Positions 21,738 through 60,679 of a stretch of 64,000 nucleotides of DNA are shown here, piece after piece (within the stretch, counting starts at the first letter, position 1; each line of letters begins with the position of its first letter). This DNA comes from an uncultured virus (IMG/VR IMGVR_UViG_3300035520_001855) (taxonomy: Duplodnaviria; Heunggongvirae; Uroviricota; Caudoviricetes). The position numbers and the translations under genes were made by a program. The notes under the pieces are model-generated. The model saw only the letters and a program-made list of their open reading frames with translations. It was not told where the DNA came from and did no database searches. The stretch is from IMG/VR virus record IMGVR_UViG_3300035520_001855. One strand, 5' to 3'.

Positions 21738-22752
21738 TATTAAGCACCCCCTTCTTTAATTCAATAACAAAATGTATGACATAATTGTACATTTCTTCTG
21801 GGTCTAATAAAACCTTACGCCCCTCTGTGATATTTCTCTCTTTTCCAATATTATGTTTTGCTGTATAGTCAACGATTTGAGGTTTACCATTATAGTCCAA
21901 TATCGGCTCACCATCAGCATCACGCATAATCACATTTGCATTTTTAGATACAATATAATCAGCTCGCATTTTAGCCTCTGTTTGTACAAACTCAACATAA
22001 CCTTCACCTACCATATTAAGATACATGATATATTCTTTTTTAGTCATTGATTTAAAATTCATATCGCCAGTTAAGCATAATTCATAATGCAATTGTGCAC
22101 TTGGCTTCATCTTAAAGTAGTTAATTATATCAATTAAATCATCTTTAAATAGATTTATGTTTCTTTCCAGTTTACTAGCTAGAATATTATCAATGCCTTC
22201 GAAACTTAATAAGAAATCTCGCACTGTTAAATTATTTGTTAATAGAAAGTTTTCAAAATCTGCATAAGAATTAAACTTCTTAAAGATAAGATTTGCTCTA
22301 CTACACAAATCTGGAATTGCCATACGACTTACTAAATTACTGTAGGTGAAACCTTTAGTCCTTATTTGATACAAGTTCTCCATTAACTTATCAGAGTCTG
22401 CAATTCTACCTGTCCTGTAATAATTGTCACGTTTACCATATAAAATTGCTAAATGTGATTTAAACTCAGGATTTTGTTTGAAATACTCAGTACAATAAGC
22501 CCTGCCAATTCCCTTGATACCAAAATTAGATAGAGTCTTCATTGCTCTGCCTACTATCTTCAATGTACAATTTGGATCAACACAAAATTGTTTTGTAAGA
22601 TTTTTTGTTGTCACAATGTCTGACCCACACTCACACGTATTTTTAAGATAAGAATGATAAGAGTCTGGTATCAACCCAGACTCTTTTGCCTCCGCAATAG
22701 AAACAATATCAGTATCAACTAAATTCAAATTTCTTGCTGTTAATATATCCAT
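21727..22752 (-). CDS. NAD-dependent DNA ligase C-terminal part (Zn finger, HhH, BRCT)
   Basis: CECGS...FCVDPNC Zn finger, FGIKGIG and FEGIDNILA HhH motifs, MAIPDL, BRCT-like LCLTGD...ADYIV; no adenylation domain. Confidence 0.75.
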   Translation of the reverse strand: MDILTARNLNLVDTDIVSIAEAKESGLIPDSYHSYLKNTCECGSDIVTTKNLTKQFCVDPNCTLKIVGRAMKTLSNFGIKGIGRAYCTEYFKQNPEFKSHLAILYGKRDNYYRTGRIADSDKLMENLYQIRTKGFTYSNLVSRMAIPDLCSRANLIFKKFNSYADFENFLLTNNLTVRDFLLSFEGIDNILASKLERNINLFKDDLIDIINYFKMKPSAQLHYELCLTGDMNFKSMTKKEYIMYLNMVGEGYVEFVQTEAKMRADYIVSKNANVIMRDADGEPILDYNGKPQIVDYTAKHNIGKERNITEGRKVLLDPEEMYNYVIHFVIELKKGVLNNGA

Positions 22753-22755
22753 TTT

Positions 22756-22799
22756 CTATCATCTCCTTTACCATTGTATAAAGGAGATGATAGTTTTTT
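22756..22799. promoter_or_regulatory. 15-bp perfect hairpin occluding the RBS of the ligase C-terminal gene; also a + strand terminator shape
   Basis: ctatcatctccttta (22756-22770) / taaaggagatgatag (22779-22793), 8-nt loop, followed by T6 on the + strand. Confidence 0.7.
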
Positions 22800-25700: not shown

Positions 25701-26607
25701 TATTTTTCATATATGCCATATCAATTGGTAGAAATATTGCTTGATCCTTTCTCCATGACATCATTAATGAAACAATATTATCAAAATGTTTTCTGTTTTT
25801 TCCACCATAACATTTAAGACCTGTTGTCTCAACATCGACTGACCATAAATCAACATTACTAACTTCCATTGTTAAAACTGTCTTTAGTTTTTCAATTGTG
25901 TCGATAACTTTATATTCTTTTTTAGATTCGCCATTTATATCAAAATACCAAGACAAATCATGAGTCAATCTCAACTGCTGTAATGTTTTAGCTTTAGTTG
26001 CTAAAATTGTATCAGTATTTTCTCTGTCTGAAACACTAAATATGTCATAATCTTCCCAATTTACTGCCTTAAATACACTTCTATAAATACTTGCTAAAAC
26101 TGTTTCAGTACTAGATATTTCTGCATTAATAAATTCTTGCTTATATCTATAATCAATTTTAGCAATCTGTCTGGCATTTAGCTTAGCTATTGCCTCACTC
26201 GTATCTTTATATTCAAGGAAGTTAATATAGTCAATTTCAGAATTACTTTTAGATGTAGCTATCTGCGACTCTGTTTCTTCAGTTGATGTGTTCTTATAAC
26301 TTTTACTCAAAGCTCTTGTGTATGACTGAGCTAAGTTATTTACAACATTCACATTGCCAAAAATCTTAGTTTCCGTAATAGTTACATGCAAACCACCAAC
26401 TAAAAAATTCATGTAGAAATCTGAATTTTTCTTTAAACTGAAGTCCCTTTTTAATAATTCTACTTCTGTGTTACTGATGAGTGCTGTTTTTCTAAACAGT
26501 AACCATGTAATTGATTTTGCGACTTCCTGTCTAATGAATAAATAGCTGTCACGTCCTGTCTGATACTCTCCAAGTAATAGCATTAAATCACCAAACCCTT
26601 CTTCCAA
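22798..26607 (-). CDS. polA: Family A DNA polymerase with 3'-5' exonuclease and N-/C-terminal extensions (probable replicative polymerase)
   Basis: Exo motifs VDVETTG, GHNISFD, YACPD; motif A FDFSQIEYR, motif B RKAGKSLNFAIPYG, GRRR, NFPIQEGAAD, motif C TIHDELV. Confidence 0.95.
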   Translation of the reverse strand: MEEGFGDLMLLLGEYQTGRDSYLFIRQEVAKSITWLLFRKTALISNTEVELLKRDFSLKKNSDFYMNFLVGGLHVTITETKIFGNVNVVNNLAQSYTRALSKSYKNTSTEETESQIATSKSNSEIDYINFLEYKDTSEAIAKLNARQIAKIDYRYKQEFINAEISSTETVLASIYRSVFKAVNWEDYDIFSVSDRENTDTILATKAKTLQQLRLTHDLSWYFDINGESKKEYKVIDTIEKLKTVLTMEVSNVDLWSVDVETTGLKCYGGKNRKHFDNIVSLMMSWRKDQAIFLPIDMAYMKNISKDWVDVLKPYLESINAVGHNISFDARALYTEFNIDLNIAYDTQQLNFNINCHDAKFHNSLKYLEHRYFGVDTLELSDIFGTKKLAGLFRYLPQQLALIYACPDVDMNLQLFYLLWDKLPVSCRKTFKLDMDTMKNITKMDCVGNRVDLAFATEYRKANNRDMELLKELIFKVVGQSMLSNDFINKMAKSADTNNLNNDEIETKVKEFFDSSEYKNAKFEFNLDSNKVLGNVLFNILKYPVQSISKKTGEPAVNASTFKALLRETLDDNTDGYLKKDIPSAVADIPQLAGETVPPLISAKEYNKLKYPLAHLIVEYRLRYKRNSTFFKQLLDESIDSFYYTSSKMANAETFRIINVVQTLQGFMKQMIVPYSDDHYMLVFDFSQIEYRYMAGMADVKDLVQNLNSPRADFHRECCALLHNIKPWLVTSKMRKAGKSLNFAIPYGMGVRSIAVSLFGVYNKHTEAEANVQLAQWQKSFHKIWDLLETKRDFAVSNGYVESLLGRRRYFYGEEGFDEWRTKLNGAVKASVRRASGNFPIQEGAADLFKIALNRFRARLKKEGLDHLVFTTATIHDELVNSVHKSVNPYFLYKIIYEECMLAIKGHPRYYAGISICDNWYEGKDDLYEAPIEFVEYMIKERPDISNQKFMTMEHHKDTVTHDIIEFMKTVFIKDFTKVGFDINNPVQDTRILLDNLQDYFLREKISVYFSPLPGRKVNKNYADDKFLASLERFIVESGPLDQYTILYPDDYGDVKEATITKDSYTLGSVASEQAITGDSILAVTDLFDSDNQTITDINNVDVIDFDLNIDDMDFMSDTQDFSNFNEETHDMSSIDALAMLEAEENFELFGDTSMYYYFETPAQTDDKEKFEDEDILVNPDKYIKLYDSFSNKVRVASDKIILNYTGVSTNVRERVKDYLDTCHVPEGTLGAISVVIKIGNNLENKHFYIKDYDVKTLQDIIENKISVPC

Positions 26608-27509: not shown

Positions 27510-27537
27510 TGAGTGAGAAGTGAATACTTCTCACTCA
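27510..27537. repeat. 12-bp perfect inverted repeat overlapping a stop codon
   Basis: tgagtgagaagt-gaat-acttctcactca; no U-tract on the minus strand, where the next gene's RBS follows immediately. Confidence 0.75.
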
Positions 27538-30494
27538 TTTATATCCGTGCCAGTAATAATTAAACTGGCACGGTCTTCTTCCCCATTTGCAATTAAAGTT
27601 TCTTTTAACAAAGGTGTCATTTCATTTGTATACCAAGAAACTCTTTTAGTTCCAACATGATATAACAATCCTTTGAAAGTTGAGATATAATAATCCCCTG
27701 CAATTAGATTTGATGACGCTACATATGGTGAGACTGATATTACAACAGCCTTTCCATTTTTATATCTTACTAAATTGTCACCATCTTTGGCAGCTCTAAC
27801 ATCAAGTAAAATGTATTTAATGTTATCCTCTGCATTCATTTCAAGTTGATAAGAACTATTATACAAAATAAACTGATTAAAACTTCTGTTGATCTCATCT
27901 TCCTTGATACTGAATGTTAATTCTTTTGAATCATGAATAGTCTGTGCTAATGATTCAAAGCAGTAATTTCTTGTTGTCAATTCTAGATCCTTTAGCTGCC
28001 CTTTAATGTGATTGTATAGCAACTGTGTAAAATTCCAAATAGTACAATCACTATTAGCAATTAAAGGTCCAAAAAGAGACTCTTTGAACAAAGTCTCCAT
28101 CCTTTGCTGTAAGAGTAAATCTCTTAAATCTTTTTCAAAAAAGCAAAGAACTTTAGTATCAATGAATGGATATTCATATAAACTGTTATTGTTTGTTGTT
28201 AAAATCTCTGTGGCTGATTGATATTTATCGCTTGCTAAATCATGTTGTAAATGATTCAACCAATCTTGAACGCCATTGTCTAAAAGAATGACAGTTGACA
28301 AAAATCTGATATTTACAACTATATTAAATAAATTGAATACTTCAGATCTTGAGTTGTGACTGATTCTTCTCAGAAAAGATGAATCTTCCAAATCGTCTTC
28401 TCCACCAGTTTCTCTGAAAGAACTGCATGTGTTCCAACTCAGAATTATGTATGCAAGTTTATCACATACCTGTTTATACAGCTCCTTAAAGTCTCCGACC
28501 ATCTTTACTGTCACATTATTCGTGTCGAGATGCAGAGCTTTTTCAAACTCATGCAGCAACATTTCTAATGATTCAAAAGTATCTGGTCCGGTGTGTCTTA
28601 GTTCAGAGTAAATCCTTTTAGCTTGTATACTATATTCACTGCCGTCATCTCCATAAATACCCATCTTCAACTCACTAAAAGTTTTGCGTAAAATTTCATA
28701 TGATTTTACATCATAAAGTTCAAGCAGTGTATCCACATCAATAGTGTATCTTATAACATCACCACGCTCAATAAATGAGTCAAGAAACCAAGACAGTAAC
28801 ATTGTAGCGAACACTATTATCTGCTTTTGTGTCATTGAGATTCCAACATCTAAGCTTAAGTCTTTATACTCTTTGTACGTACTAAAAATATCTTCTCCAA
28901 ATTCAGCCACCATATCATCATATTGAGTCGAATTACCACCGTCTATCAAATTATTTAAAGCACTTTTAAATTTCAAATATAAGTAGTTTCTGCCCGATTC
29001 AGTTCCTAGAGGTTTTAAATCTTGTTCTACATCCTGTTCATTTTGATATATCCTAGATAAACTTACACTTGAACTTGTTGAGAATTTCTTTAAATTCTTA
29101 TACAATTCAAGTGTCTTCTTCTTAATATCTTGCATAGAACTGTTATCAGTTGTGTAAATATTATCAACAGTTAAAGGATTATAAATAGCAGCAAAGCCAC
29201 CACTATATCTGCTACCTAAAATATTTTCATCTATATTTCTATAAACGATTAACTCCTGCAACTTTGATTTCTTTGTCCACCTAACTGATTGGCTTGCATC
29301 GGTAATAACATAATTAGGGAACACTAAAACAGAGTATCCATTTTGTTTTAAGATGTTGATGATCTGTTTTGCAGCAAGTACACCTGACAGAACCTTGTTA
29401 AATACTTCGCTGTTGTTATATACATAACTGAATGTTGAATTTTTTACAGCTCTGTTACTTAACATGAAACTGCTTTGGCAATTCTTTATAAATTCATTTC
29501 TAACTTTATTCTGGAAAACCATAAAGTTATTTGAAGTATCAACAACATTCACATTAGAATCAATACAAGAATCCAAATTACTAATAATACTATAACCATC
29601 TAAAATGATGTCCGCTTCAGTAGTAGACTGCACATTTGGATTTTTATGTTTCATGTTTTTATATATCGCTGAAAACTTGTAGTCCAAATCATCATCTATA
29701 AATGCGTCTAATTGCTCTGCTTCTAAATTGCAATAGTATGTCATTATATTTCTACAGCGACCATTAAACGCATCAGAACGTGATGCTTTAAATAAAACAT
29801 CACTTCCATCTACCACAGCATTCATCAAATCTTTATAAAGTTTAGTATTTGTGAATTCCGGTGTATTTACTGGCACATTTTCAACAGTTTCTACTATGTT
29901 CAGAATAAATTCACCATTTTCTGTATACTTTACATCTGAATTTAAAACTGCTTTACCATATTTATCAATAACCCCTTTAGAGATGTTCCAATGTTCAAAA
30001 CACCCTAAAATATTTGTATATAGGGTGTTCTTCCTATCTTCTGCTTCTCTTGTCTCCGAAAATGTTTTTGTATTAAAAGTATCATAGAAAGAAAAGCTGT
30101 CTAAAAATAAACCTATTCCTTGCTCAACAGCTTGCTCTAAGTTTGGTCCTGTCAATCGGTGTCCTTCAAAATACTCATAAGCTGCATCGTGTAGAATTTG
30201 TTTATTCTTTAACATTCTGTCACCCATCAAGAAATATTCATTTTCTAAATTAGCAACAGTACTGTCAAACTCATTTTTTATTCTTTGAGAGAGTGCAAAA
30301 TCACTTTGCACTCTCTCAAGAACTGACTCCTTGAATTTAGACACATCCCTTAAATTCAACCCATAAAATAAATTACTGTACACACTTTTTCTGGCACTTC
30401 TCCTTGTCTGTTGTTTAGAAATAATCTCATACACTGCAATACAGCATATAACAGATGTACTATATTGCTCCATACTGTAATTACTCAATAACAA
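27531..30494 (-). CDS. Large hypothetical protein (987 aa) immediately downstream of the RNA polymerase
   Basis: Long ORF, TTG start after AAGGGGGG; no motif recognised. Confidence 0.8.
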   Translation of the reverse strand: MLLSNYSMEQYSTSVICCIAVYEIISKQQTRRSARKSVYSNLFYGLNLRDVSKFKESVLERVQSDFALSQRIKNEFDSTVANLENEYFLMGDRMLKNKQILHDAAYEYFEGHRLTGPNLEQAVEQGIGLFLDSFSFYDTFNTKTFSETREAEDRKNTLYTNILGCFEHWNISKGVIDKYGKAVLNSDVKYTENGEFILNIVETVENVPVNTPEFTNTKLYKDLMNAVVDGSDVLFKASRSDAFNGRCRNIMTYYCNLEAEQLDAFIDDDLDYKFSAIYKNMKHKNPNVQSTTEADIILDGYSIISNLDSCIDSNVNVVDTSNNFMVFQNKVRNEFIKNCQSSFMLSNRAVKNSTFSYVYNNSEVFNKVLSGVLAAKQIINILKQNGYSVLVFPNYVITDASQSVRWTKKSKLQELIVYRNIDENILGSRYSGGFAAIYNPLTVDNIYTTDNSSMQDIKKKTLELYKNLKKFSTSSSVSLSRIYQNEQDVEQDLKPLGTESGRNYLYLKFKSALNNLIDGGNSTQYDDMVAEFGEDIFSTYKEYKDLSLDVGISMTQKQIIVFATMLLSWFLDSFIERGDVIRYTIDVDTLLELYDVKSYEILRKTFSELKMGIYGDDGSEYSIQAKRIYSELRHTGPDTFESLEMLLHEFEKALHLDTNNVTVKMVGDFKELYKQVCDKLAYIILSWNTCSSFRETGGEDDLEDSSFLRRISHNSRSEVFNLFNIVVNIRFLSTVILLDNGVQDWLNHLQHDLASDKYQSATEILTTNNNSLYEYPFIDTKVLCFFEKDLRDLLLQQRMETLFKESLFGPLIANSDCTIWNFTQLLYNHIKGQLKDLELTTRNYCFESLAQTIHDSKELTFSIKEDEINRSFNQFILYNSSYQLEMNAEDNIKYILLDVRAAKDGDNLVRYKNGKAVVISVSPYVASSNLIAGDYYISTFKGLLYHVGTKRVSWYTNEMTPLLKETLIANGEEDRASLIITGTDINE

Positions 30495-30508
30495 CTGGAT
30501 CCCCCCTT

Positions 30509-33500
30509 TTAGGTTTCAAAAAACAATGTTGTTGTCACATCATCTTCATTGTTGACCTTATTAATAGATTTTATAGTTTCATCCTTGGTAATGTCTACAT
30601 CATCACTATCGTTTAGCACTTGATTAAATAACCCTTTCGCACCAAACTCTGACGTTTCCACACTTGTAAAGATATCATCATCATTAGTTACAACATTCTG
30701 TTGAATAAGTTCTTCTTCATTGGAGTACATTCTCGAAGCTTTTACAATATGCTTTGTATAATTTTTCTTGTCTGTTAAACCAATTTCAAAATCACTACAT
30801 TCTTTGCCAAACTGTATTCCAAGTATTGACCTTGAATAGAATGCTGAACCATCATCTTTAATTCCCCTCTTGATATTAATACTTATAGCTTTCTGTGGAT
30901 TTTGTCCACATAAAGATTTTATGATACCTCTACCTGCATTTGATTCTGCATAATTTGTTACAATTGGTTGATGCTTTATTTCAACACCTCCTAACTGTTC
31001 TAGCTGGTTAATCTTATTAGTATCCATTATTTGTCCGACAGTTAAATCTGGTATTGAACTGTCTGTGATGACTGAATTTCTTGACATAGAGTGTGTAAGT
31101 AACTCTATATATCTTGAGTCAATATCTGCATTAAGATTTCTAATGATGGATGCAATTTCATTGTAAATCATCTCCACTAAATCCTTATAAGGCAAAAGTT
31201 TTAACAACTTACTAAAATTATCTTCACCAGCAATAATTCTGATGGGCTTGTCATCTCTAAAAACCTTTAGAGTCCCACCAAAAAGTATCCTACTCTTAGG
31301 AGCAAAATACTCTTTAATCTTTTTCCCTTTGATTATCACTACCTTTCCTGTTTCTGAGAAAGTAGCAATTTCTCCTGGTTGTAAATATAGTGATGTGTTA
31401 ATGTATCGTGTGTTCTTCCTTTCGTTGTCAGACATGTTAATAATTTGTGTAACACGCTTTACAACGTTTGTTGTGGTGTCCTGCTCTGATGATGCATTCT
31501 TAACATCCATCGCCATCTGTGATAAAATCTCACCAATAACTTCGGCTGTTATTGTACCAACTGCATTATTTGCTGGCAAGAGTCTAGCAGGTTGAACTCC
31601 AACATGCTCTACAATAGGTCTATCCTTATGGATATCCTCTCCATAGCAACATGCACAAATACCTTCAGAACATTTACAATCATGCAAAGTTCTAGCAAAT
31701 ATTGTTGTTGAACCTGCGTTTATATATTCATCAATGTGTTCTTTAGTTAAGATAATTTGCTTACTATTATCGCCGTACTTATATCCATAGCGATTTGTGA
31801 ATCTTTTGTATGTTTCATCAGCAACCTTATAATTGAATACAAAACTACATATATCACCACTTGAGTCAACACAATAAATCTTTTTTATTTTGTTACTTAC
31901 TAAAAAATTATAACAACCTTTGTCTAGAACTCTATCCTGTAGAATATCTAGAACTTTTTGTTGTTCTGCTGCTTCTTCATCTGACAATCTCGAAGTGTCT
32001 GCTAAAAGTTTTTTATGTGCACATACTTCAAAAAATCTTTCTTCACAACTTGAATCCGGTTCAAAATACATCTCATACTCTCGTGGTTTTGCACCACAAT
32101 CTGTTTTTGATATGTACTCATCGTTTGCCATGAAGTTTAAAGTACGTGTCATAACACCTGCATCTTTTGTGGCAAGTGTTGTACTGAGCTGTGCACGACG
32201 AACCTCAAAACCTGATAAAAACAGCTCTAATGAATTTAAACCGTCATACAAATCGTGTCTAATTGATGTTGGTACAAGTTCATCATTAATATCCTTCAAA
32301 TATCCTTCATAAATCAAAGGTGCTGTTAAGCTGTTGAAGCTTCCTCTTGAACCTGAATCAAAAATTCTATAAAGATTTGAATTTTTATTCTTCTCCATTA
32401 CTTTTTGAATTTTCTTGATTGCAGATTTACTTGTTTTATCATCTTCAAGTCTCTGTACATCAATTGAATTGCTGTAGAAACCACACATTGATTTAAACTC
32501 AACTATTTTCCTTGTGTCTGTACTCAAAGCATTATGTGCAATAGTATTCAATGCACTAAAATCTTCAAAAGCTAATGTTGTGTTGTTTAAATCCTGAAGT
32601 AAGAATCCTTCCAGTTTCATATCATTAAGAAAATCAATGAAATCAGAAGCATCCCACTCAGAACCTGTTAAAAGCTGATAGTCCTGTTCAAATTTTGGAT
32701 TTGAATTCGGTAAATAATACATTACCATTTTATCCACATTCTTTGACTTTAGTGGGTATAAACCTTCACCCTCGATATCTCTTGTCAAATCTATATTTCC
32801 AGGAAGTGAAGCCTCCACAAACAACCTTCCAGCTGTTGATATTCGCTCAGGATTTACTAAATGTACTGTATCGTTTAATCCTACTTGCATTAACTTCACA
32901 GCTTTAATCAGCTCATTGATTGAATTGAATTTAGCAATAATATTGCTAGGATTTGGATCAATACATGTTGCTGAGTAAAAACCTAAAACACAGTCCTGTT
33001 TAAGTGCATAATTATTACCACCTTTTCTATCCTCTGTTAAAAGATTTGTTGGTGATAACTTTTCATCGCATTCCTTTTTACATGATTCTGGCATTACAGC
33101 ATAGACTGCCATTTGGTCACCATCAAAGTCTGCGTTGAATGAAGCACAGATAAGTGTGTTGATTCCTATTGTCTTATTCTCCCACATCAAAGGTGTGTAT
33201 GCCTGAACATTTTGTCTATGGAGTGCAGGTTCACGAGTTAATAACACTCTCTCGTCTGCTAAATGCTCATTGATGATTTCGTCTATTAACTCACCTATTT
33301 CAACAAGTGTATCATAATCCATTAACATGGTTTTTATTTCATCAACGGTTTTTCCAGACTCAATCAAAGTCTTTCCAGACTCTAATTGATATGGTGTACA
33401 GCTTGTTGAGTCGGTTGTGAATTTTATTGCCCCCGACTTTAATAATGCATACAATTTAGCTGGTGAACGCTGAGCATAACACTTAACAATTTTATCAATA

Positions 33501-36500
33501 TCCTCAGAACCATTTAAGTGTTCAACAAGACTGCCAAGTTCATATGAGTTCTTTAACCAACCTCTTATATTGTATTTATACATTTCAAAGATTGCTTCTC
33601 TTGGTAAGTACACTTCATCAATCTTCAAATCTGGTGCACCAACAATTGTTGATCTACCAGAAAAGTTAATCGTCTTCTTTAAGATACTGGCTCTGATTAC
33701 ACCATTATCTTTCTCTTTTATCATTGCCCAAGGCGATTTGATACCTCTTGAGTTCTTGAATAAACTTGAGATGTCAGTATTTATACAAACAGTAAACCAA
33801 ACTTTATAAAAATCATTGTATCTATTTATAGCTGATATATCATCTCTACATACTGCCATGATGTCATAGATGTCACCATTCCACATATCTAAATTACTAC
33901 CCATAACTAAGTTTAAAAGATTCAAAACTTTAATATAAATAATATTTAAAGGATCTGTTAAACCTCTGTCTTTCTGGGGTTTTCTAAATTTTAGTGGTAT
34001 TAGCAAAAATTTATTTGTTATATATTCTGAAGGCTCACTAAAATTCTTCCATGAAGATTTTATAGAGTCCTTCCATGACACACTAAATGAAGCCTTTGGA
34101 TCATCTTCTTCAAAATCGTCATCTGTAGATGATTCCAGTATATCGTCAACTATGTCATTATCCGAATCATCTTCCATTCTGTCCTGATTATCTGTTGATA
34201 TTGATGACTCATTAATATAACTGACAAAATTAAAAATATCCTCTTTAGTTATCAATGAAAACATTAAAAAGAAGGCAAAACCACCTGTATAATAAACCTC
34301 ATTGAGATTCATTGTTAAATTAGGATCACCATTCATATTAATTATAACATGTTTAAATTGTGTTCCATTGTAACGTTTTTCATTTTTAATTGCAAGGTAC
34401 GCTGAACCATTGATTACTGCCTTAACCATTTTTATAGTCATTGGCTTATAGTTGACTTCACCTTTTTTATTTACATACATTACTGGAAATAACTTACACA
34501 TTTCTGCATTAAGTATTGCAGGATTTACCCAAGCAATGTTATTATACTCAACATGTGAATATTCTTTTGAACCAAAAGAATTTCTTCTTTTGTTTTCATT
34601 TGTTTGTAAATTTGATGAGCCAACTTCTAACATCTCTCTTACATTTGAATTGTAAGGCACTTTGAAATCAGATATGGCATATATATCAGAATCTGTTGTT
34701 ACTTTTAGTGATATACCATCTCTGATTACACCTGACATATCATAACCAACTGTTCTTAAATATGCTAACAATAATTCATTTGTTTTGTTATCACCTATAA
34801 TGTCAGTTCTTCCGGTATCTGATAACTCAGCTTTTAGTTTGTTCCTTGCGTGTTGATCATCACTTCCTGCACCGAACAGATAAGAGTGTGTTAAATAAGC
34901 TCCATTTGCTAAAATAGCATTTGATGCATATTCTGAAGCTGATTGTCCACCAGGTGTCAAGTCTGACTTACGAGGTTGTCCTGTTTTCATATCCTTATGC
35001 TTAGATTCATTAATGAAATTCATCTTTTTCGAAACAGAGTGATCAAGCTTCATTATATACATAGTTCCAACATTTACCTTATTAGGATAAGGCATTAATG
35101 TTTCATTGTTATACAAAGTTATCAAATTAGACTCCTTAAAGAAAGCCTCATTAACATTCTTTGAACTTTGTAAAGAGCTTACTAAATCATCATAAGCAGT
35201 ATTTGTTGGTACAACTATGACACTGTCATCTACTGACAGTCCTAAAGCCAATTCAATAAGCTGTCCCAAATTCATTCTTGAGGGTACACCTAAAGGATTG
35301 ACACAAATATCAACTGGATTACCATTTTCATCACATGGCATTTCAGAATCTTTTAATATTCTTGTTATTACACCTTTATTACCATGATGTCCTGTAAATT
35401 TATCACCAACCTCAAGATTCTTGATATTACCAAGTGTAATTGATATTACTCTTGTTGTTGGGTCATTTGACTTTTTGCTGTAACGTATTGATTGCACATA
35501 ACCGCCCTGACCAGGCTTTACAGTAATTTCCTTAACAGGTCTTTTACCGCTGTTATTATATGTTGTGATTGTGTCCGAAACATCTTCGTCAAGTCGTTGT
35601 AATGCTAATATTGTTGATCCATCAGCATAATATTCATTTACCTTAGGCTCACCATTTACAAGATTTGATTTTCTGTTTATGATTTCATCAGAGGACAGTT
35701 CGCTGTCTGATGGAATCTCACAACTCATTACATGAGTAAATACGTTACTAAGTTTCATAGACTCAACTAAACCTCTACGAACTAGAATACCGTCCTCATA
35801 TGAGTATCCATGAAATGACATGAAAGCAACTCTTAAGTTAACTCCCATTGCTAAATCTTTCTCAGCAATTGCTTCTTTAATATCATTTCTGTCAAGATAC
35901 CCAAAACCATCAAATTTTCTTACACCTGTAATATCTTCTGGTAAGTACACATTATTTGGTCTGTGTGTATCAATATCCATTGGATGTAATACAATTTCAC
36001 CTGGAAGCCAAATAGGTTCTTCTCTTCCTGTATTAGTATTTAATTCATATCCGATAACCATCTGAGCTATAGTCTTTAAATATGCAACTGTGACATCTAT
36101 AGTTTTGTTAACTGACTCATCAACAGCTGCAAAACTGCAAATCATTGTCTCACCTTGCATAATTACATTTACTAACCTAATACCTAATGACTTATTAAAT
36201 GTTCCACTAAGATTTTCTAAATCATCAAGTATTTCATCTGCCCTGATAATTTTTGAATCCCAAAATGAGGATACACCAGTTGTCACATGGTGACGTTCGC
36301 CTCCTAAAACAGGTGTGTACTGTTCCGCATGATTACCTGCCATTTGCGCTCTACGTCCTTTGTTAGAATTTACACCAACACCAATTGAAATGGTTGGTGA
36401 GCTTACTGACATCGGTACAATAGGCACATATTCAACTTCTGTGGCTACAACACGCATTACTGTTCCCTTAGTTACAACATCTACCACTTCAGTCGGATTC

Positions 36501-38212
36501 TCCCAATGATTAGGGCAAATAATTTTACTGTAAGCATCCTGAACGGTTAGCACAACTTCATCATCAGTAACAACACCATTTTCAACCCTTCTAAAATAAT
36601 TTGCTAAATGTCCTTCTTCATTTACAAAAGCTGTACAAGAAAGATGTTGTGTTATACCAGCTTTATCAGACTCAGGCGATGCTTGTGAGTCAAGAAAGAA
36701 TATATTTTCAAGTCTCACAGCTCTAGCTGCTTTTGTTGGATTCTTTAAACCAGAAGTTGTTTTGTAATCACCCGATGAGTCGGAGACTGTATTTCTACCA
36801 ACAAGAGGTTGAATACAAGCAACATTTCCTCGCTCTCTCAGACTTTTATAGTAACTGCTAAAATTACACAATTTGTCCAAATCTTTCATCTCTTTATCTT
36901 TAGGGTTAGGTATTCCCAAAGTGTCATGCAGATTTAAATAATTGGTTATTTTATTTACTACTGAATCAAGTGCATTTTCAACAAACTCTTTTAAAAAGAT
37001 AAAACTGTTAAAGTAAGTCTTATTTTGCAGAGAGTCAATATTGATTATATCATTCTCCGAGTAAGACTCAACGGCTATAATGTTACATACATTTACAAAG
37101 AAATTATAATCAGCTATGTTTGATATTGGCCTTTTTACAATCCTTGTATCAATGCCATTTTGAAGTATATACATTTCTGATATAGATGTGTCATTATCAA
37201 TTTGACCTAAAATATCTACTGTAAGTTTATCACCTTGGTGTAGATAATGCTTTACTTTACTACCACTTTCATTTATGGTTGTATACTCCATATCTGCTGC
37301 GAGTATCTGATTAAAGCACCTATTTGTGAACGAGAATACTCTTTCAGCATTTGCCTTAGCTGTTGGTGTCAATTTAAATAAATTACCTGCTAAAATTCTT
37401 TTATTAAATATATCATCAACAACATAATCATTAGGTAAATTTACAAAGGGTATTAAAGCTTTTAGCATTCGTCTTCGGCATATAGTATTGTTAAATACTC
37501 TAGAGGTTTCTTTTGGAAATAAAAGATCTGTTCCACCATGAACTCTACCACTTGATACATCATTCAAAATTACGTTAATGTCTGCACCGGAGTAAGCAAT
37601 CATTAAATCAAGGAGTGTTAACTCTACAGACTTATCAATGCCTTCTTTTTTAGAAGTAACTCGATAATACTTTTCATTCCTTGATATTTCTACCTCAGTT
37701 CCCCTTTCAGGTCTAAATGCAACTGTAAGCTTCTTAAAATCTACTGTTGATTTGACAACATCAATAGTTTTCTTTATTTGAAAACCTTTTTCTGCCTCAA
37801 CTGATGTTGCAAACTTATATTGTTGCCCATTTATCAACATACCCTCTGTAGTATAGAGTGGTATAGATATTAAATTCTCCATAACACTAATGAAAGATTT
37901 AGAAGCATCTGCTAAATTACCAGATTTATCTAATTCATTTATATATACATTAAAACTTAATTTAATGTGTTTATCAGGATTGTCACCTGTACTGCCATCT
38001 GCCTCAGTGCTATATGACTTCTTTAATTGAAGTATTTGATTGTTAATATCATCTCTATCATTCTTTAAAGAAAGCTTTATAATTTTTCTTCCCCTGTCTT
38101 TATCCTTTAAAGTCACAATGCGTTCAACTTTACAAATGGATTCAAGCTCTGAAATAAATTTCATATATTGCTTATACTGTGAATTACTTAAAAATAATTC
38201 TTTTACTTTCAT
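30509..38212 (-). CDS. rpoBC: Fused beta-beta' (two-barrel, multisubunit-type) DNA-directed RNA polymerase, highly diverged
   Basis: Beta motifs: IPLYTTEGMLING, SPESDKAGI, RAQMAGNHAEQ, GYSYEDGI, GDKFTGHHGNKGVI, NPLGVPSRMNLGQ, YIMKLDH, GGQ. Beta' motifs: NFSGRSTI, LLTREPALHR, NADFDGDQMAV (33116-33136), SGSRG, TKDAGVMTR, C..CYG, AVGTITAEVIGE, IDSRYIELL. All in one uninterrupted frame. Confidence 0.95.
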   Translation of the reverse strand: MKVKELFLSNSQYKQYMKFISELESICKVERIVTLKDKDRGRKIIKLSLKNDRDDINNQILQLKKSYSTEADGSTGDNPDKHIKLSFNVYINELDKSGNLADASKSFISVMENLISIPLYTTEGMLINGQQYKFATSVEAEKGFQIKKTIDVVKSTVDFKKLTVAFRPERGTEVEISRNEKYYRVTSKKEGIDKSVELTLLDLMIAYSGADINVILNDVSSGRVHGGTDLLFPKETSRVFNNTICRRRMLKALIPFVNLPNDYVVDDIFNKRILAGNLFKLTPTAKANAERVFSFTNRCFNQILAADMEYTTINESGSKVKHYLHQGDKLTVDILGQIDNDTSISEMYILQNGIDTRIVKRPISNIADYNFFVNVCNIIAVESYSENDIINIDSLQNKTYFNSFIFLKEFVENALDSVVNKITNYLNLHDTLGIPNPKDKEMKDLDKLCNFSSYYKSLRERGNVACIQPLVGRNTVSDSSGDYKTTSGLKNPTKAARAVRLENIFFLDSQASPESDKAGITQHLSCTAFVNEEGHLANYFRRVENGVVTDDEVVLTVQDAYSKIICPNHWENPTEVVDVVTKGTVMRVVATEVEYVPIVPMSVSSPTISIGVGVNSNKGRRAQMAGNHAEQYTPVLGGERHHVTTGVSSFWDSKIIRADEILDDLENLSGTFNKSLGIRLVNVIMQGETMICSFAAVDESVNKTIDVTVAYLKTIAQMVIGYELNTNTGREEPIWLPGEIVLHPMDIDTHRPNNVYLPEDITGVRKFDGFGYLDRNDIKEAIAEKDLAMGVNLRVAFMSFHGYSYEDGILVRRGLVESMKLSNVFTHVMSCEIPSDSELSSDEIINRKSNLVNGEPKVNEYYADGSTILALQRLDEDVSDTITTYNNSGKRPVKEITVKPGQGGYVQSIRYSKKSNDPTTRVISITLGNIKNLEVGDKFTGHHGNKGVITRILKDSEMPCDENGNPVDICVNPLGVPSRMNLGQLIELALGLSVDDSVIVVPTNTAYDDLVSSLQSSKNVNEAFFKESNLITLYNNETLMPYPNKVNVGTMYIMKLDHSVSKKMNFINESKHKDMKTGQPRKSDLTPGGQSASEYASNAILANGAYLTHSYLFGAGSDDQHARNKLKAELSDTGRTDIIGDNKTNELLLAYLRTVGYDMSGVIRDGISLKVTTDSDIYAISDFKVPYNSNVREMLEVGSSNLQTNENKRRNSFGSKEYSHVEYNNIAWVNPAILNAEMCKLFPVMYVNKKGEVNYKPMTIKMVKAVINGSAYLAIKNEKRYNGTQFKHVIINMNGDPNLTMNLNEVYYTGGFAFFLMFSLITKEDIFNFVSYINESSISTDNQDRMEDDSDNDIVDDILESSTDDDFEEDDPKASFSVSWKDSIKSSWKNFSEPSEYITNKFLLIPLKFRKPQKDRGLTDPLNIIYIKVLNLLNLVMGSNLDMWNGDIYDIMAVCRDDISAINRYNDFYKVWFTVCINTDISSLFKNSRGIKSPWAMIKEKDNGVIRASILKKTINFSGRSTIVGAPDLKIDEVYLPREAIFEMYKYNIRGWLKNSYELGSLVEHLNGSEDIDKIVKCYAQRSPAKLYALLKSGAIKFTTDSTSCTPYQLESGKTLIESGKTVDEIKTMLMDYDTLVEIGELIDEIINEHLADERVLLTREPALHRQNVQAYTPLMWENKTIGINTLICASFNADFDGDQMAVYAVMPESCKKECDEKLSPTNLLTEDRKGGNNYALKQDCVLGFYSATCIDPNPSNIIAKFNSINELIKAVKLMQVGLNDTVHLVNPERISTAGRLFVEASLPGNIDLTRDIEGEGLYPLKSKNVDKMVMYYLPNSNPKFEQDYQLLTGSEWDASDFIDFLNDMKLEGFLLQDLNNTTLAFEDFSALNTIAHNALSTDTRKIVEFKSMCGFYSNSIDVQRLEDDKTSKSAIKKIQKVMEKNKNSNLYRIFDSGSRGSFNSLTAPLIYEGYLKDINDELVPTSIRHDLYDGLNSLELFLSGFEVRRAQLSTTLATKDAGVMTRTLNFMANDEYISKTDCGAKPREYEMYFEPDSSCEERFFEVCAHKKLLADTSRLSDEEAAEQQKVLDILQDRVLDKGCYNFLVSNKIKKIYCVDSSGDICSFVFNYKVADETYKRFTNRYGYKYGDNSKQIILTKEHIDEYINAGSTTIFARTLHDCKCSEGICACCYGEDIHKDRPIVEHVGVQPARLLPANNAVGTITAEVIGEILSQMAMDVKNASSEQDTTTNVVKRVTQIINMSDNERKNTRYINTSLYLQPGEIATFSETGKVVIIKGKKIKEYFAPKSRILFGGTLKVFRDDKPIRIIAGEDNFSKLLKLLPYKDLVEMIYNEIASIIRNLNADIDSRYIELLTHSMSRNSVITDSSIPDLTVGQIMDTNKINQLEQLGGVEIKHQPIVTNYAESNAGRGIIKSLCGQNPQKAISINIKRGIKDDGSAFYSRSILGIQFGKECSDFEIGLTDKKNYTKHIVKASRMYSNEEELIQQNVVTNDDDIFTSVETSEFGAKGLFNQVLNDSDDVDITKDETIKSINKVNNEDDVTTTLFFET

Positions 38213-39019: not shown

Positions 39020-40225
39020 CTAACCTAACATTGGATAACAACCAGATTGATAAAGTACATTTACATTTGATCCAACAGTTATACCTTTACTTATTAGATA
39101 TGACAAGTTATAACCTGTGATTTTTGTTATTGTTTTATTATCATCTGTCTTTAGTGGTTCCAATGTTATTTTTGTTGTATAGTTTTCACTTGAATTTCCT
39201 TCAAATTCAAAACTTATGTCTTTGACAGTTCCAACATATACTTTAGCTTGAAACTCATTAAATTTTAAAGCTATACTACCATCTGAATATAAGTCACTTA
39301 TTCCAGCTTTATTATAACTAGCTAAATTATCTAATCTAGCTACAACACCATCAGCCTGTATACCAAGTTTAATGGCTTTCGTGTGCAGTTGTGCTGTTAT
39401 ATTATCAATCCAATCTGAAAAGGACTCAAACCCATTATCAACAAAAGTATCTACAACACTAGGCACTATCTCGAATCCCAGTTTTTCTAAAGCAGATATT
39501 TGCTCAATATAAGAAGATTTTACTTGACTTGTATCAAAAGCAAATAATCTTAAATGTGGTAGAACATCTTCATGTATATCTGTAGACAATATTCCGAGTG
39601 CTGCTGATCTGCCATTTTTGTAAGGTGTTAAACTATTACTTAAAAATTTTACACCCTCATCATCAATAATGCCCTCAGCGGCTACTAAAATAATATTACC
39701 TTCTGACCCTCTAATTCTTCCAAGCATGCCTTTATTTAATTTCTTTTTTATTGTTTTTGTGAAATCTGTTACAACATCTGTCCTGCCCTTTGAGTAAGCT
39801 TCTTGAACTAGTGTCGTGTTCTTTGACATGAGTATACGAGTTGATATACCGTCAACCTTTAATGTATGACATATTAACTCGTTGTTATGTTGTTTATACC
39901 ATTGGTAGGCATCTTCTTTTGTTCTGACTGGTCTTTGTGATATTGGGAGAACATCTAAAGCACTTGAAGCTTCGCCTACATAATAATTTTTTTTGTTTAT
40001 TGTACCTTGTAAAGTTATATTATATTTTTCAAGTAAATCTGTTGGTTCATTATCATCTTCATATGAAGTATTAAATATTCTTTCATCTGGGTACATATTT
40101 TTTAAAACAGTTTCCATTCTGTCATAAATACTATCACTAAAGATAGGTGCACCAATTTTGTAAGCATACCTGGCTATTTTATAAATGTCCATATAATTAT
40201 TAGACTCCAGCAAATCATTTAACAA
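39020..40225 (-). CDS. ligA: NAD-dependent DNA ligase N-terminal part (domain Ia, adenylation, OB)
   Basis: AYKIGAPIFSDSIYD (Ia), LKVDG (KxDG), ADGVVARLD, IALKF, and OB-fold end ITVGSNVNV...SGCYP, followed by a stop. Confidence 0.85.
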   Translation of the reverse strand: MLNDLLESNNYMDIYKIARYAYKIGAPIFSDSIYDRMETVLKNMYPDERIFNTSYEDDNEPTDLLEKYNITLQGTINKKNYYVGEASSALDVLPISQRPVRTKEDAYQWYKQHNNELICHTLKVDGISTRILMSKNTTLVQEAYSKGRTDVVTDFTKTIKKKLNKGMLGRIRGSEGNIILVAAEGIIDDEGVKFLSNSLTPYKNGRSAALGILSTDIHEDVLPHLRLFAFDTSQVKSSYIEQISALEKLGFEIVPSVVDTFVDNGFESFSDWIDNITAQLHTKAIKLGIQADGVVARLDNLASYNKAGISDLYSDGSIALKFNEFQAKVYVGTVKDISFEFEGNSSENYTTKITLEPLKTDDNKTITKITGYNLSYLISKGITVGSNVNVLYQSGCYPMLG

Positions 40226-41162: not shown

Positions 41163-41231
41163 TCTTAAATTCACATCTATGTATACTAATGATTTATTAA
41201 AATCACTAATATACATAATCTAAATTTAAGA
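41163..41231. promoter_or_regulatory. Long imperfect hairpin filling the intergenic leader of the RuvC-like gene
   Basis: Nested arms tcttaaatt/aatttaaga, tatgtata/tatacata, tgattt/aaatca. Confidence 0.55.
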
Positions 41232-41758: not shown

Positions 41759-42268
41759 TTATTTTCCCTCCCTTTGAAGTCTTGTGACATACTCTAAAAT
41801 TTCAATGTGACTTGCATTTAACTTTGGTTTCTCTAAAATTTTAATTCTAGTTAAAGGCTTACTAAACTCTAGTCGTGCACAAGCATCCTTTACACCTTTT
41901 AATGTATTAATTGATGGTCTTCCACTTTTATCTGTCAAATCTACAAAACCCAGTTCTTCCCTTATTTCTGGGTGCTTGTCTAAATATTTTGATAGAGCAT
42001 CAAAATAATTCTTAGTTCCATAATTGACTTGGTAAAAATCTTCAATCAATTTAGAAGGTCCACCACCGTGCTGACATGAGAAGCAGTGCCATTTATTTTT
42101 TGCAAAATCAACAAACATTGATGGTCTTGTTTCTTCATGCATAAGACAGGAACATCTTCCTTTAACGTCTAGAGTAATATCAAATTCATCAACAATATCC
42201 ATTATTGGCGAATTGTTTAGTAAGTCCTCCAAAGCTTTAACCTTTTGTAAATCATACACAAATATCAC
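41759..42268 (-). CDS. Stand-alone CHC2 Zn-finger (DnaG primase zinc-binding domain)
   Basis: CLMHEETRPSM...WHCFSCQHGG; only 169 aa, with no TOPRIM domain. Confidence 0.85.
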   Translation of the reverse strand: MIFVYDLQKVKALEDLLNNSPIMDIVDEFDITLDVKGRCSCLMHEETRPSMFVDFAKNKWHCFSCQHGGGPSKLIEDFYQVNYGTKNYFDALSKYLDKHPEIREELGFVDLTDKSGRPSINTLKGVKDACARLEFSKPLTRIKILEKPKLNASHIEILEYVTRLQREGK

Positions 42269-44034
42269 TCACTATCATCTTTAAATTTCTTTACTTCCTC
42301 AGCTATTTGGTTAAATACAGTTTTTGTGTTTTCACCTTTATTGAGGAATCTACTAAATAAGTCATTTAGATTACTGCTTGCATCTGATTCTGATATCTTA
42401 GCTCGCCAACGCTTAACCATTTTGTTTTCAACAAGTGTTGTCTTTTCTGACATATACTTGTCTGTATCGACAGACTTAAGCGTGCCATCTAAATCAATAG
42501 TCATTTCATCAGTACCAGTTTTTAATCTCAAAGTTAAAATTCCCCTTGTGTCAATAGTTGCAACTAAGTCAAAATCTGTAGATGTATCTTTCTTCTTCAG
42601 ATTGTATTCTGCTATCTTCAGACATAAATCAGCCTTTGTTGCCTCTCCTGTGTAGAAACGTAACGGTATATCACCTGTTTCAGATTTTAAAGTATAAGAC
42701 TTAGCTACCATAGCAGGGAGTGGTGTATTCTTACGAATAATTTGATCAACTCTACCTGCTATCAATTCACCTGTATCTGGATCTCTGTTTGATACTCCAA
42801 GTGAGATTGTGTAAGGTGCTACATCAGATATTTTTAAATTAGAGCTTCCTAAAGTTACAGCAGTCTTTATTGATGCTCCGAGAGAAACCGATAAATCTGG
42901 TTCCATTGTGCTGATAATATCATACTTTACACTATAGTCATCATTTAATAACTGTTGAAGATATAGATTCTTGGTCGATCCACCAATAAGAATAATTTCA
43001 GATATATCTTCTGATGTATTTCTTGCAAGAAGTTTTCTTATACAAGTTTTAGTCTTCTTATAAATATCTTCTGTGCTCTTTTTTATATGATCAAAACTAA
43101 TTGTAAAAACTTCTGTACATTCAGGAATATATTGCTCCATACTGATTTTTACAACTCCACCCATATGTCCTGCAAGACTAATTTTAGCTTCAGAAGCTGC
43201 AAATCTCAACTTTTCAAATACATCCTTTTGAAGATTTATAATCTTATCTTTAATCTTTATATCTGTATACAGCTCAGCATAATCAGCTAAAGCATAATTT
43301 AATGTAGCTGTATCAATGTCATCACCACCTAATTTTCTGTTACCTCCTGAAGCAATTACTTCAAATTTTGGTTCACTTGTTGATTCTGTTATTGTTGTTG
43401 ATAAATCAATACCAAGCTCGCTAAAATTTAAATTTAGATTTTCCAAGTTTACTGGTGCAGTTATTTTTATGTGTGTTAAATCAAATGTGCCGCCACCAAG
43501 ATCATATACAAGCACTTCCTTAGATTTTTTGATTTCGGCTATGTTGTACTGTAATGCTGCTGCTGTTGGTTCATTGATTATATCGACAACTTCCATCCCA
43601 GCTAACTCTCCAGCTCTACGAGTATCTTCACGCTCTCTACTTGAAAACTCTGCAGGCACAGTTATTGTAACTTTCTTTATATCCTTATACCCAGATGAGG
43701 CTGCTTTATCACAAATAGCTTTTAATATCATTGCTGATATTTCAATTGGTGTTTTCGTGATTTTTTCACCCTTGTACTCAAAAGTATGTACATAATCTGT
43801 GCCTATATGTGACTTTATTGAATAGCAAGCATTCGGCATATATCTGTTCTGATACGCTTCTCTACCAACCACCCATTTATCATCGCCAAGCCACATAACG
43901 CATGATGGCATTGTTGTATACAGTCTTCCTGCATCTTCAATTCTTACAATTGTAGACTTACCATCTCCAATATAAACAGACAATGCAGAATTTGTTGTAC
44001 CTAAATCAATTCCAAATAATTTCTCATTTTTCAT
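42265..44034 (-). CDS. Hsp70/DnaK-family chaperone, diverged
   Basis: GIDLGTTNS, TVPAEF, IINEPTAAAL, VYDLGGGTFD, LGGDDID, LIGGSTK, IIRKNTPLP. Confidence 0.95.
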   Translation of the reverse strand: MKNEKLFGIDLGTTNSALSVYIGDGKSTIVRIEDAGRLYTTMPSCVMWLGDDKWVVGREAYQNRYMPNACYSIKSHIGTDYVHTFEYKGEKITKTPIEISAMILKAICDKAASSGYKDIKKVTITVPAEFSSREREDTRRAGELAGMEVVDIINEPTAAALQYNIAEIKKSKEVLVYDLGGGTFDLTHIKITAPVNLENLNLNFSELGIDLSTTITESTSEPKFEVIASGGNRKLGGDDIDTATLNYALADYAELYTDIKIKDKIINLQKDVFEKLRFAASEAKISLAGHMGGVVKISMEQYIPECTEVFTISFDHIKKSTEDIYKKTKTCIRKLLARNTSEDISEIILIGGSTKNLYLQQLLNDDYSVKYDIISTMEPDLSVSLGASIKTAVTLGSSNLKISDVAPYTISLGVSNRDPDTGELIAGRVDQIIRKNTPLPAMVAKSYTLKSETGDIPLRFYTGEATKADLCLKIAEYNLKKKDTSTDFDLVATIDTRGILTLRLKTGTDEMTIDLDGTLKSVDTDKYMSEKTTLVENKMVKRWRAKISESDASSNLNDLFSRFLNKGENTKTVFNQIAEEVKKFKDDSE

Positions 44035-49454: not shown

Positions 49455-49585
49455 ATAATCACCACCAAGCATACTGTACTAAATATAAAAGATTTTGTCT
49501 CATCTGGGTCTTTCTTTGAAAAAGCAAATTTGAATGAAGTTAAAAACATCAGTAACATAAATGAGATAATCTCAAATATTTTCAT
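49442..49585 (-). CDS. Small 47-aa two-TM membrane protein (not in ORF track)
   Basis: GGAGG RBS; MKIFEIISFMLLMFLTSFKFAFSKKDPDETKSFIFSTVCLVVIICLT; overlaps both neighbours and fills the apparent gap. Confidence 0.65.
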   Translation of the reverse strand: MKIFEIISFMLLMFLTSFKFAFSKKDPDETKSFIFSTVCLVVIICLT

Positions 49586-56069: not shown

Positions 56070-56080
56070 ATTAACACCTC

Positions 56081-57555: not shown

Positions 57556-57569
57556 ATAAGCTCACCATT

Positions 57570-58454: not shown

Positions 58455-58633
58455 AATAATCTTACCTCCTGAATAAAAATAATTAATTGTACAATGGAGA
58501 TGTTTCTTTTCATCTTCACTACAATTGTATAAGTAAGATTATGTTAATTAATAAGATAATTTATGTTAAATATTTGGTATATACACTGCTTTTTTGGTTA
58601 TTAAATTGTGAATTTATTTTTGTTTTTGTGTTA

Positions 58634-59434: not shown

Positions 59435-59449
59435 CTAAATCCCTTCTTT

Positions 59450-60127: not shown

Positions 60128-60147
60128 TGTCTCACCTCTTCAAATAA

Positions 60148-60182: not shown

Positions 60183-60188
60183 AAACTG

Positions 60189-60659: not shown

Positions 60660-60679
60660 TATTCACTCCTCAATCCATA

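Follow-up and report, generated by a model that had tools for sequence, protein, structure and literature searches.

The stretch of DNA studied here comprises 64,000 nucleotides of an uncultured virus record (IMG/VR IMGVR_UViG_3300035520_001855) and is referred to below as the window. On its minus strand, a point absent from an earlier model-made reading of the same letters (the sequence-only reading), it carries a single open reading frame (ORF) of 2567 amino acids (aa), named P0001. This ORF starts with ATG, ends with a stop codon at 30509-30511 and is translated without interruption under table 11 (0 internal stops). The best overall explanation of our results, to which we give a probability of about 80%, is that P0001 is a complete bacterial-type RNA polymerase (RNAP) core, with beta and beta' in one polypeptide, carried by a large non-chromosomal element.

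The fused polymerase gene

Pfam matches along P0001 occur in the order Rpb2_6 (residues 780-1080, E-value 1.7e-49), Rpb1_2 (1613-1716, 3.8e-22) and Rpb1_5 (1991-2384, 1.1e-10). The profile of an alignment of P0001 with six full-length relatives (A1, 7 sequences) runs colinearly through residues 93-1338 of the 1342 of E. coli beta and on through 130-1357 of the 1407 of beta', skipping E. coli-specific insertions only. It was also colinear with B. subtilis beta 115-1144 and beta' 120-1171. Pfam order and colinearity with E. coli thus confirm the canonical order of beta and beta' regions in one ORF, as proposed in the sequence-only reading. A phmmer comparison with PDB sequences matched 203 distinct chains at E-values up to 0.001, the top ones being a bacterial beta' (7xya_D, 6.7e-39, query residues 1635-2042) and a bacterial beta (9gdo_C, 1.1e-38). 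NCBIfam scores were 227 bits for bacterial rpoC and 195 for rpoB, against 68 and 95 for archaeal A' and B. By these matches and scores, P0001 is a bacterial-type enzyme.

The last beta helix ends with LLAYLRTVGYDM (residues 1148-1159). After a linker of seven residues it is followed by ISLKVTTDSDIYAIS (1167-1181), which resembles the start of cellular beta'. Both strings had been quoted in the sequence-only reading together with NADFDGD, and all three are present in the translation; the junction of a few residues, placed there at about 34700-34770, proved to be this linker (Table 1). In the structure model of residues 1130-2300, the chain superposes from residue 1162 onward on beta' residues 3-16 of solved chains, so that almost no insertion separates the two subunits.

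P0001 has kept the two-barrel active site (NADFDGD, K938/K946, E806/D807 and H1058), the bridge helix and the second zinc site. The catalytic NADFDGD is intact, as had been claimed, and its seven residues are invariant across A1. The same holds for E806, D807 and G808 and, in the bridge helix, for E1996, F1998, G2001, R2005, G2019 and R2023. A larger alignment (A4) contains 47 rows, P0001 and 46 full-length homologues. K938 and K946 are invariant in these 47 sequences, as are the four cysteines of the second zinc site (C2179, C2186, C2189 and C2039), which align to E. coli beta' C888, C895, C898 and C814. We take E806/D807 to correspond to E. coli beta E813/D814, and H1058 to H1237.

Structures were predicted with AlphaFold2 (AF2) up to residue 2300, residues 2301-2567 lying outside the models. 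For the beta half (residues 1-1171, from the 47-row alignment), the predicted local distance difference test (pLDDT) was 81.0 and the predicted template modelling score (pTM) 0.79. VIA-align placed 835 residues of this model (1-1088) on 9n9p_C 17-1189 with Z 36.5 and a root-mean-square deviation (rmsd) of 3.7 Å, and Foldseek gave template modelling (TM) scores of 0.67/0.68 to S. aureus beta 8x6f_C over 1262 columns. The model of residues 1130-2300 (pLDDT 79.5, pTM 0.67) aligned to 8x6f_D with Z 24.7, rmsd 6.3 Å and 842 aligned residues (model 33-1145), with a Foldseek TM score of about 0.5. The superposition on the bacterial core proposed in the sequence-only reading thus succeeded for both halves. 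According to the models, P0001 holds full-length beta and beta' folds with lobes, flap, clamp and bridge helix. The N-terminal 780 residues show hardly any detectable sequence similarity to beta, yet a beta fold is predicted for them. Residues 1339-1374 are acidic and of low confidence, and about 240 C-terminal residues extend past the last aligned beta' position.

Two small ORFs precede the polymerase gene and probably share an operon with it, because the nearer one ends four bases inside the polymerase ORF, overlapping its start.

Table 1. Features of the polymerase gene and of its neighbours in the window.
Feature	Position	Strand	Basis or remark
P0001, whole ORF, single-chain beta-beta' RNA polymerase	30509..38212	-	Translation, Pfam, phmmer, NCBIfam
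Beta-like half, residues 1-1159	34736..38212	-	AF2 model, VIA, Foldseek, profile colinearity
E806-D807 in HGYSYEDGILV	35792..35797	-	By-eye match to E. coli beta NGYNFEDSILV
GDKFTGHHGNKG (G936-G947), beta double-psi barrel motif with K938 and K946	35372..35407	-	Aligned to E. coli beta 1062-1073
Linker SGVIRDG (S1160-G1166), 7 residues	34715..34735	-	Between last beta helix and first beta' residues
Beta'-like half, residues 1167-2567	30512..34714	-	AF2 model, VIA, profile colinearity, sequence
NADFDGD (N1693-D1699), catalytic Mg-binding loop	33116..33136	-	Alignment to beta' catalytic loop
Bridge helix region, about residues 1996-2027	32132..32227	-	Aligned to E. coli beta' 773-800
Second zinc site, C2179, C2186, C2189	31646..31678	-	Together with C2039 at 32096-32098
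Trigger-loop region GTITAEVIGEILSQMAMDVKNASSEQD (2219-2245)	31478..31558	-	Alignment to E. coli beta'
Two small ORFs (118 and 128 aa) directly upstream of P0001	38209..38923	-	ORF calling
Family-A DNA polymerase, 598 aa, polymerase domain only	1097-2893	-	Family match
Family-A DNA polymerase, 1269 aa, with 3'-5' exonuclease domain	22798-26607	-	Family match
NAD-ligase adenylation part	39020-40225	-	Family match
341-aa ORF, weak LigA C-terminal match (E 0.0035)	21727-22752	-	17 kb from adenylation part
Hsp70/DnaK-like gene	42265-44034	-	Pfam E 3.7e-63; phage family PHROG 22485 E 5.8e-59
FtsK/EssC-like ATPase, 759 aa	4850-7129	-	FtsK_SpoIIIE domain E 1.3e-14; transfer role only putative
GreA-like factor, 190 aa, acidic tip ADGDLSEN	49572-50144	-	NCBIfam GreA E 4.9e-8, far below curated cut-off
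Conjugation-like or pilus-like block	54150-63999	-	PilT-like, small ORFs, HNH protein with hydrophobic segments, 625-aa protein, VirB4-like
PilT-like ATPase	56081-56974	-	268 bits, below NCBIfam curated cut-off

Relatives, phylogeny and age of the fusion

Of 6529 candidates in a word-seeded search from P0001, 466 proteins had E-values up to 0.001. Over 96-99% of the query, identity to P0001 was 42% for P0002-P0004, 31% for P0005 and 28-29% for P0006 and P0007; these proteins, of 2360-2506 aa each, come from ENA or Logan assemblies. Exhaustive HMMER searching with the beta half gave 7412 proteins at E-values up to 0.001 and 176 up to 1e-30, the top rows being mainly proteins of 2300-2900 aa that cover query residues about 100-1160. 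Both halves were present in 247 of the 498 candidate sequences of at least 700 aa.

In all 46 full-length homologues of A4, beta and beta' are fused at common junction columns, with more than 1000 residues on each side and a near-constant linker length. As one of the ways in which it could be wrong, the sequence-only reading had named a sequencing error that deleted a stop codon; an error of assembly between two genes would have the same effect. Since the 46 homologues come from independent assemblies, the loss of a stop codon in one assembly is ruled out. Moreover, the exact P0001 protein occurs on two Joint Genome Institute (JGI) contigs. Two gut-metagenome RNA-seq libraries, from two studies, also contain contigs of 150-396 nucleotides (nt) identical to parts of 30400-36524. 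Such contigs match the window at 34387-34613 and 34656-34890, the latter crossing the junction; stretches of the ORF that they leave uncovered carry no information. Nothing was found in favour of an error, and this explanation is refuted. The common ancestor of the group sampled already had the beta-beta' fusion. The RNA-seq contigs also show that the element occurs in both gut samples.

For phylogenetic analysis, the 247 two-half sequences were reduced to 213 by removal of gappy rows and to 144 representatives at 75% core identity. In the unrooted FastTree phylogeny of these rows (1243 columns, Shimodaira-Hasegawa-like support), 31 rows formed a cellular clade with a support of 100. This clade included E. 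coli, B. subtilis, Omnitrophica P0030 and Aerophobetes P0037, as well as Helicobacter P0035 and Wolbachia P0072, in agreement with the statement that rpoBC fusions of the latter two are ordinary cellular enzymes. Its sister was a 17-row clade of IMG/VR-type fused ORFs (support 100). P0001 fell in a separate 11-row clade, which one long row (P0243) joined weakly (support 34), and three further unnamed fused clades contained 57, 25 and 2 rows. An unrooted IQ-TREE analysis of 38 chosen rows (LG+C20+F+G4 with posterior mean site frequencies, quick search) agreed, with a support of 100 for the cellular clade, 99 for the IMG/VR-type clade (6 rows) and 100 for the P0001 clade. Core identity of P0001 to six named cellular rows was 24.1-26.7%, compared with 44.2-53.7% among those six.

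The trees place the P0001 clade outside a well-supported, monophyletic cellular clade to which the Helicobacter and Wolbachia fusions belong. P0001 is part of a large and so far unnamed radiation of fused enzymes, apart from cellular polymerases. Outside the cellular and IMG/VR-type clades, this radiation has about 95 representatives in the 144-row tree (75% core-identity clustering). The contigs on which it occurs measure 100-400 kb, and none of the phage, plasmid and IMG/VR collections searched contains it. The sequence-only reading had proposed a distinct, bacterial-derived and strongly diverged lineage. The bacterial type, the divergence (24-27% core identity) and a lineage of its own are upheld. 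Derivation from a bacterial RNAP goes beyond what unrooted trees support, and the lineage, while real, is not a lone case.

These data bear on whether P0001 might be an ordinary chromosomal rpoBC of an unusual, reduced or fast-evolving bacterium. A complete fold would fit this, as would the normal occurrence of the fusion in Helicobacter and Wolbachia, but both trees exclude P0001 from the cellular clade at a support of 100 and its core identity to cellular enzymes is low. The genomic context also disagrees. The window holds no ribosomal-protein or rRNA genes, and no tRNA genes or Rfam matches were found in it; in reference loci, rplL and rpsL flank rpoBC in B. subtilis and rplL lies upstream in E. 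coli. Most neighbours of P0001 have no family match, and the contigs carrying its relatives cluster at 145-185 kb. A chromosomal origin is therefore close to refuted.

Searches of individual collections gave a similar picture for the P0001 clade. Close relatives were found neither in IMG/VR nor in GTDB representative genomes nor in JGI metagenome contigs, and P0085 and P0019, which stand for two other fused clades, were absent from IMG/VR. In the phage collection, P0019 gave nothing beyond rpoB/rpoC-like matches, and all matches of P0001 were below 60% identity, none reaching 80% coverage, with several rows annotated as rpoB/rpoC. In the plasmid collection, P0001 matched 68 records, none with at least 80% query coverage or more than 60% identity; the best 25 of the 68 were rpoB/rpoC regions, some on chromosome-sized records. 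ESM Atlas returned only generic RNAP beta clusters for the beta half.

Some of the fused proteins listed showed features of their own. The P0019 and P0053 clusters contain fused polymerases of 2850 aa, with 816 and 553 member sequences and contigs up to about 400 kb. Their assignment to the Jug gut phages was considered and is unsupported: the Jug supplement lists a separate 382-aa beta' N-terminal-like protein (table S4, PMC12880540), which indicates a split enzyme. The paper describing the Inocle elements does not mention an RNA polymerase. The beta-beta' proteins P0028 (PF01000 and PF01193) and P0088 (PF01000) also carry alpha-subunit domains on record, and would be beta-beta'-alpha fusions. 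Intein or LAGLIDADG-type domains (PF14528, PF14890) are on record for the fused proteins P0087, P0096 and P0097.

Nature of the carrier element

The longer of the two JGI contigs with the exact P0001 protein measures 184,105 bp, so that statements on gene content cover a 64-kb window, or about one third, of a contig of at least 184 kb. One relative of P0001 lies on a contig of 313,485 bp, about twice 157 kb. All 55 main ORFs of the window are on the minus strand, and its guanine-cytosine (GC) content is about 31%. The carrier is a large, low-GC, non-chromosomal element from animal-gut samples.

Family matches in the window point to replication and repair functions. They comprise two family-A DNA polymerases (PolA), a DnaQ-like exonuclease, an NAD-dependent ligase, a DnaG zinc ribbon, a DnaB-like helicase, an SNF2 helicase, a UvdE-like endonuclease and an HNH endonuclease. 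The NAD ligase may be split across two ORFs, judging from the weak C-terminal match listed in Table 1. Between 7132 and 22752 (minus strand) there is a run of about 13 ORFs, including ones of 862, 608 and 1054 aa, without Pfam, PHROGs or NCBIfam match, interrupted only by the DnaQ-like exonuclease. The 1054-aa ORFan had no usable ESM Atlas match, and the 987-aa ORF directly downstream of the polymerase (27531-30494, minus strand) had no relative by word-seeded search.

The conjugation-like or pilus-like block ends at the window edge with an incomplete ORF for a VirB4-like ATPase, which matches the CD1110 family (E-value 4.9e-19, 68 bits against a cut-off of 325) and the Mbov_0397 family (3.1e-17). 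Adjoining it are genes for a 625-aa protein with two N-terminal transmembrane segments and a weak NlpC/P60 match, and for a 102-aa protein with two transmembrane segments. The VirB4-like protein matched 26 plasmid records (Bacillus 21, Paenibacillus 4, Exiguobacterium 1) and none of the 50,697 records of the phage collection.

The carrier could instead be a tailed phage of about 160-185 kb, with the fused enzyme as its non-virion or virion RNAP, independent of the host as in phiKZ, AR9 and mReC. The multisubunit-type RNAPs so far described on non-cellular DNA are those of phages (PMC7598289, PMC7481178), and fused beta-beta' ORFs occur in IMG/VR loci. The unidirectional gene blocks, the narrow range of genome sizes and the double-length contig are compatible with a phage as well. 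Among the neighbours, the Hsp70-like protein matches a phage family (Table 1), PolA matches PHROG 17, and the PilT-like gene has a 31% identity match in one cultured 209-kb cyanophage record. However, capsid, portal and tail families were found neither among 54 ORFs (PHROGs, E-value 1e-5) nor among 41 unannotated ORFs at an E-value of 0.05. The 64 kb gave no convincing structural or packaging family match; the sole PHROGs head-and-packaging row was a weak terminase match (9.2e-8, with no matched stretch) on the VirB4-like ATPase. The distribution of VirB4-like matches between plasmids and phages, and the absence from IMG/VR of the close clade and of the P0085 and P0019 clades, also speak against a phage. 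Moreover, when window proteins were compared with the 10-kb flanks of the polymerase in 80 IMG/VR loci, 1 of 55 matched and no gene besides the polymerase was shared. A phage is a possible carrier and the less favoured one; a plasmid-like, conjugation-capable element of a monoderm host is more likely.

The sequence-only reading had placed the polymerase on a mobile element. This is likely, on the basis of 64 kb in which relaxase, family-level integrase and capsid matches are lacking.

Proposed mechanism and comparison with known systems

P0001 would make RNA by the ordinary two-metal mechanism and would transcribe the element's own genes, all of which lie on one strand in the window. In cellular RNA polymerases, beta and beta' are brought together by an alpha dimer. 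The covalent beta-beta' link of P0001 may replace this dimer and allow assembly without host subunits. No sigma, alpha or omega family was found in 54 neighbouring ORFs at an E-value of 0.001, nor in 41 at 0.1.

The GreA-like factor is a candidate partner of the polymerase. Only 4 proteins related to it were found at E-values up to 0.001, the window's own included; the three relatives carry PF03449 and the ADGDLSEN tip is identical in all four. The factor would enter the active site via the secondary channel and supply transcript cleavage, and its presence in the window suggests that the element depends in some way on a secondary channel open to Gre factors. Cleavage of this kind may offset a trigger loop without Arg and His in the sub-clade of P0001.

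GGAGG-type ribosome-binding sites precede genes of the window, and hairpin-plus-T-run sequences occur in intergenic gaps; terminator-like sites were not clearly enriched (7 against 4.0 expected). A motif search in 12 intergenic gaps revealed no widely shared promoter motif beyond AT-rich words. The exact 11-mer TAAATCATTAG occurs twice, at 4814-4824 and 41186-41196 (minus strand). Both copies are intergenic, on the coding strand and 45-70 nt upstream of start codons, and lie within roughly 25 nt of similar sequence. With one mismatch allowed, 12 matches were found against 5.4 expected. It may be a promoter or operator, two copies being too few to judge.

Several points weigh against P0001 being a working, self-sufficient polymerase of a mobile element. 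In the trigger loop SQMAMDVKNASS, D and N occupy the columns of E. coli R933 and H936, in an alignment that is short and could be shifted; this holds for P0001-P0005, and catalysis could be slow or altered. His is kept at the H936 column in P0006 and P0007. Between the beta' start (1167) and the HVEYNNIAWVNP segment there is no Cys cluster of the beta' N-terminal zinc-binding domain, compared here with what we take to be the E. coli four-Cys numbering. With this domain lost, contacts with initiation or antitermination factors and those at the RNA exit are likely to be altered. From these two losses one could propose that P0001 has kept its fold but catalyses weakly or has taken on another role, such as that of a primase-like or silencing enzyme. 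This is improbable, since the metal-binding and substrate-contacting residues tested are all invariant across 47 sequences, the Gre-like factor encoded in the same window has an intact tip, and two family members retain the trigger-loop His.

Other reservations concern the partners and the carrier of the polymerase. The target of the Gre-like factor might be the polymerase of the host, and host subunits could still serve P0001, as the window has no sigma, alpha or omega match of its own. Sigma-70-like sites were not enriched (113 found, 120.4 expected). The RNA-library contigs are a weak hint of transcription only, since such libraries can contain DNA. The VirB4-, PilT- and GreA-like matches are all below NCBIfam curated cut-offs, and capsid, terminase or relaxase genes may lie elsewhere on the contig. 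Finally, several rows of the unrooted trees drew treekit warnings for long branches and odd composition.

Altogether, a complete bacterial-type RNAP core in a single polypeptide on a non-chromosomal element remains the best explanation. Tentatively, P0001 may further mark an undescribed lineage of giant (about 155-185 kb), plasmid-like, conjugation-capable elements of gut monoderm bacteria, equipped with their own replication machinery, a self-sufficient alpha-less single-chain RNAP and a Gre factor. The wider fused radiation would then be a major RNAP branch in which the fusion is ancestral. If true, this would be a non-viral replicon transcribing its own genes independently of the host. A plasmid-like carrier would be a case, unreported in the literature searched, of a bacterial replicon that is not viral and encodes a multisubunit-type transcription enzyme of its own. 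In that literature (mainly titles and abstracts, with bioRxiv supplements outside the search), we found no report of a full-length, zinc-domain-less fused family on conjugation-like elements outside the cellular and IMG/VR-type clades. With a natural, full-length single-chain beta-beta' enzyme so far from all cellular ones, it could be tested in a simple way whether a covalent link is able to stand in for the alpha platform, and P0001 would provide a compact, one-gene bacterial-type polymerase for biochemistry. Given the size of the fused radiation, much of the diversity of RNAPs probably still lacks a name.

Among known enzymes, the fused RpoBC of Helicobacter and Wolbachia resemble P0001 in having beta and then beta' in one ORF with both halves full-length. 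However, they sit within the cellular clade, with a core about 50% identical to that of other phyla and 25-27% identical to that of P0001. The cellular fusions carry Pfam Rpb2_1/2/3/45/7 and Rpb1_1/3/4, matches that P0001 lacks. Unlike them, P0001 is also without the beta' zinc-binding domain, and its neighbours (ORFans, PolA, NAD ligase) are not those of a chromosomal rpoBC.

The phiKZ/AR9-type RNAPs of jumbo phages are described as beta/beta'-derived enzymes that work without alpha and omega and are split into four or five polypeptides (PMC7598289). They share with P0001 a location on large non-cellular genomes, and the window likewise has no alpha or omega match, but P0001 is a single chain. 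The sequence-only reading had contrasted P0001 with the split phage RNAPs of the phiKZ/AR9 type. This contrast is incomplete, as it does not extend to the IMG/VR loci examined, where fused ORFs (1991-3596 aa, mostly 2050-2200 aa) were found in 35 of 80, nor to two cultured phages. In the latter, Salmonella phage Arash (gp206) and Vibrio phage D69 (VPHD69_0261), an ORF of 1525 aa crosses the beta/beta' boundary (P0001 about 757-1785). These two fusions are limited to C-terminal beta and N-terminal beta' sequence, the rest being encoded by separate genes such as Arash gp216. Because of these fused loci and partial fusions, single-chain status by itself is not unique.

The mReC-type RNA polymerases are beta/beta' homologues with NADFDG from uncultured Caudovirales (Weinheimer and Aylward 2020, PMC7481178); the available passages of that paper do not mention a fusion. 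Like P0001, as far as these passages go, they are beta and beta' homologues with NADFDG on non-cellular DNA and are detectable by standard profiles. We assume that the fused IMG/VR ORFs correspond to the published mReC clade. These ORFs are mostly shorter than P0001, and their clade is sister to the cellular enzymes, not to P0001.

The polymerases of YonO, crAss-like and P23-45 type also have both barrels in one polypeptide. They are described as keeping little beyond the barrels and as being missed by COG0085/COG0086 profiles, whereas P0001 retains whole beta and beta' folds in the models.

As regards the carrier, the closest parallel to the VirB4-like region is provided by large Bacillus plasmids (for example NZ_CP032858.1, 143 kb, and 350-kb B. 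thuringiensis plasmids), which have a module of DUF87 VirB4-like ATPase, peptidase and FtsK. Their VirB4-like ATPase is 26-27% identical to that of the window over 87-89% of the query, and in one B. subtilis plasmid the VirB4-like gene lies beside genes for an M23 peptidase and an FtsK-like protein.

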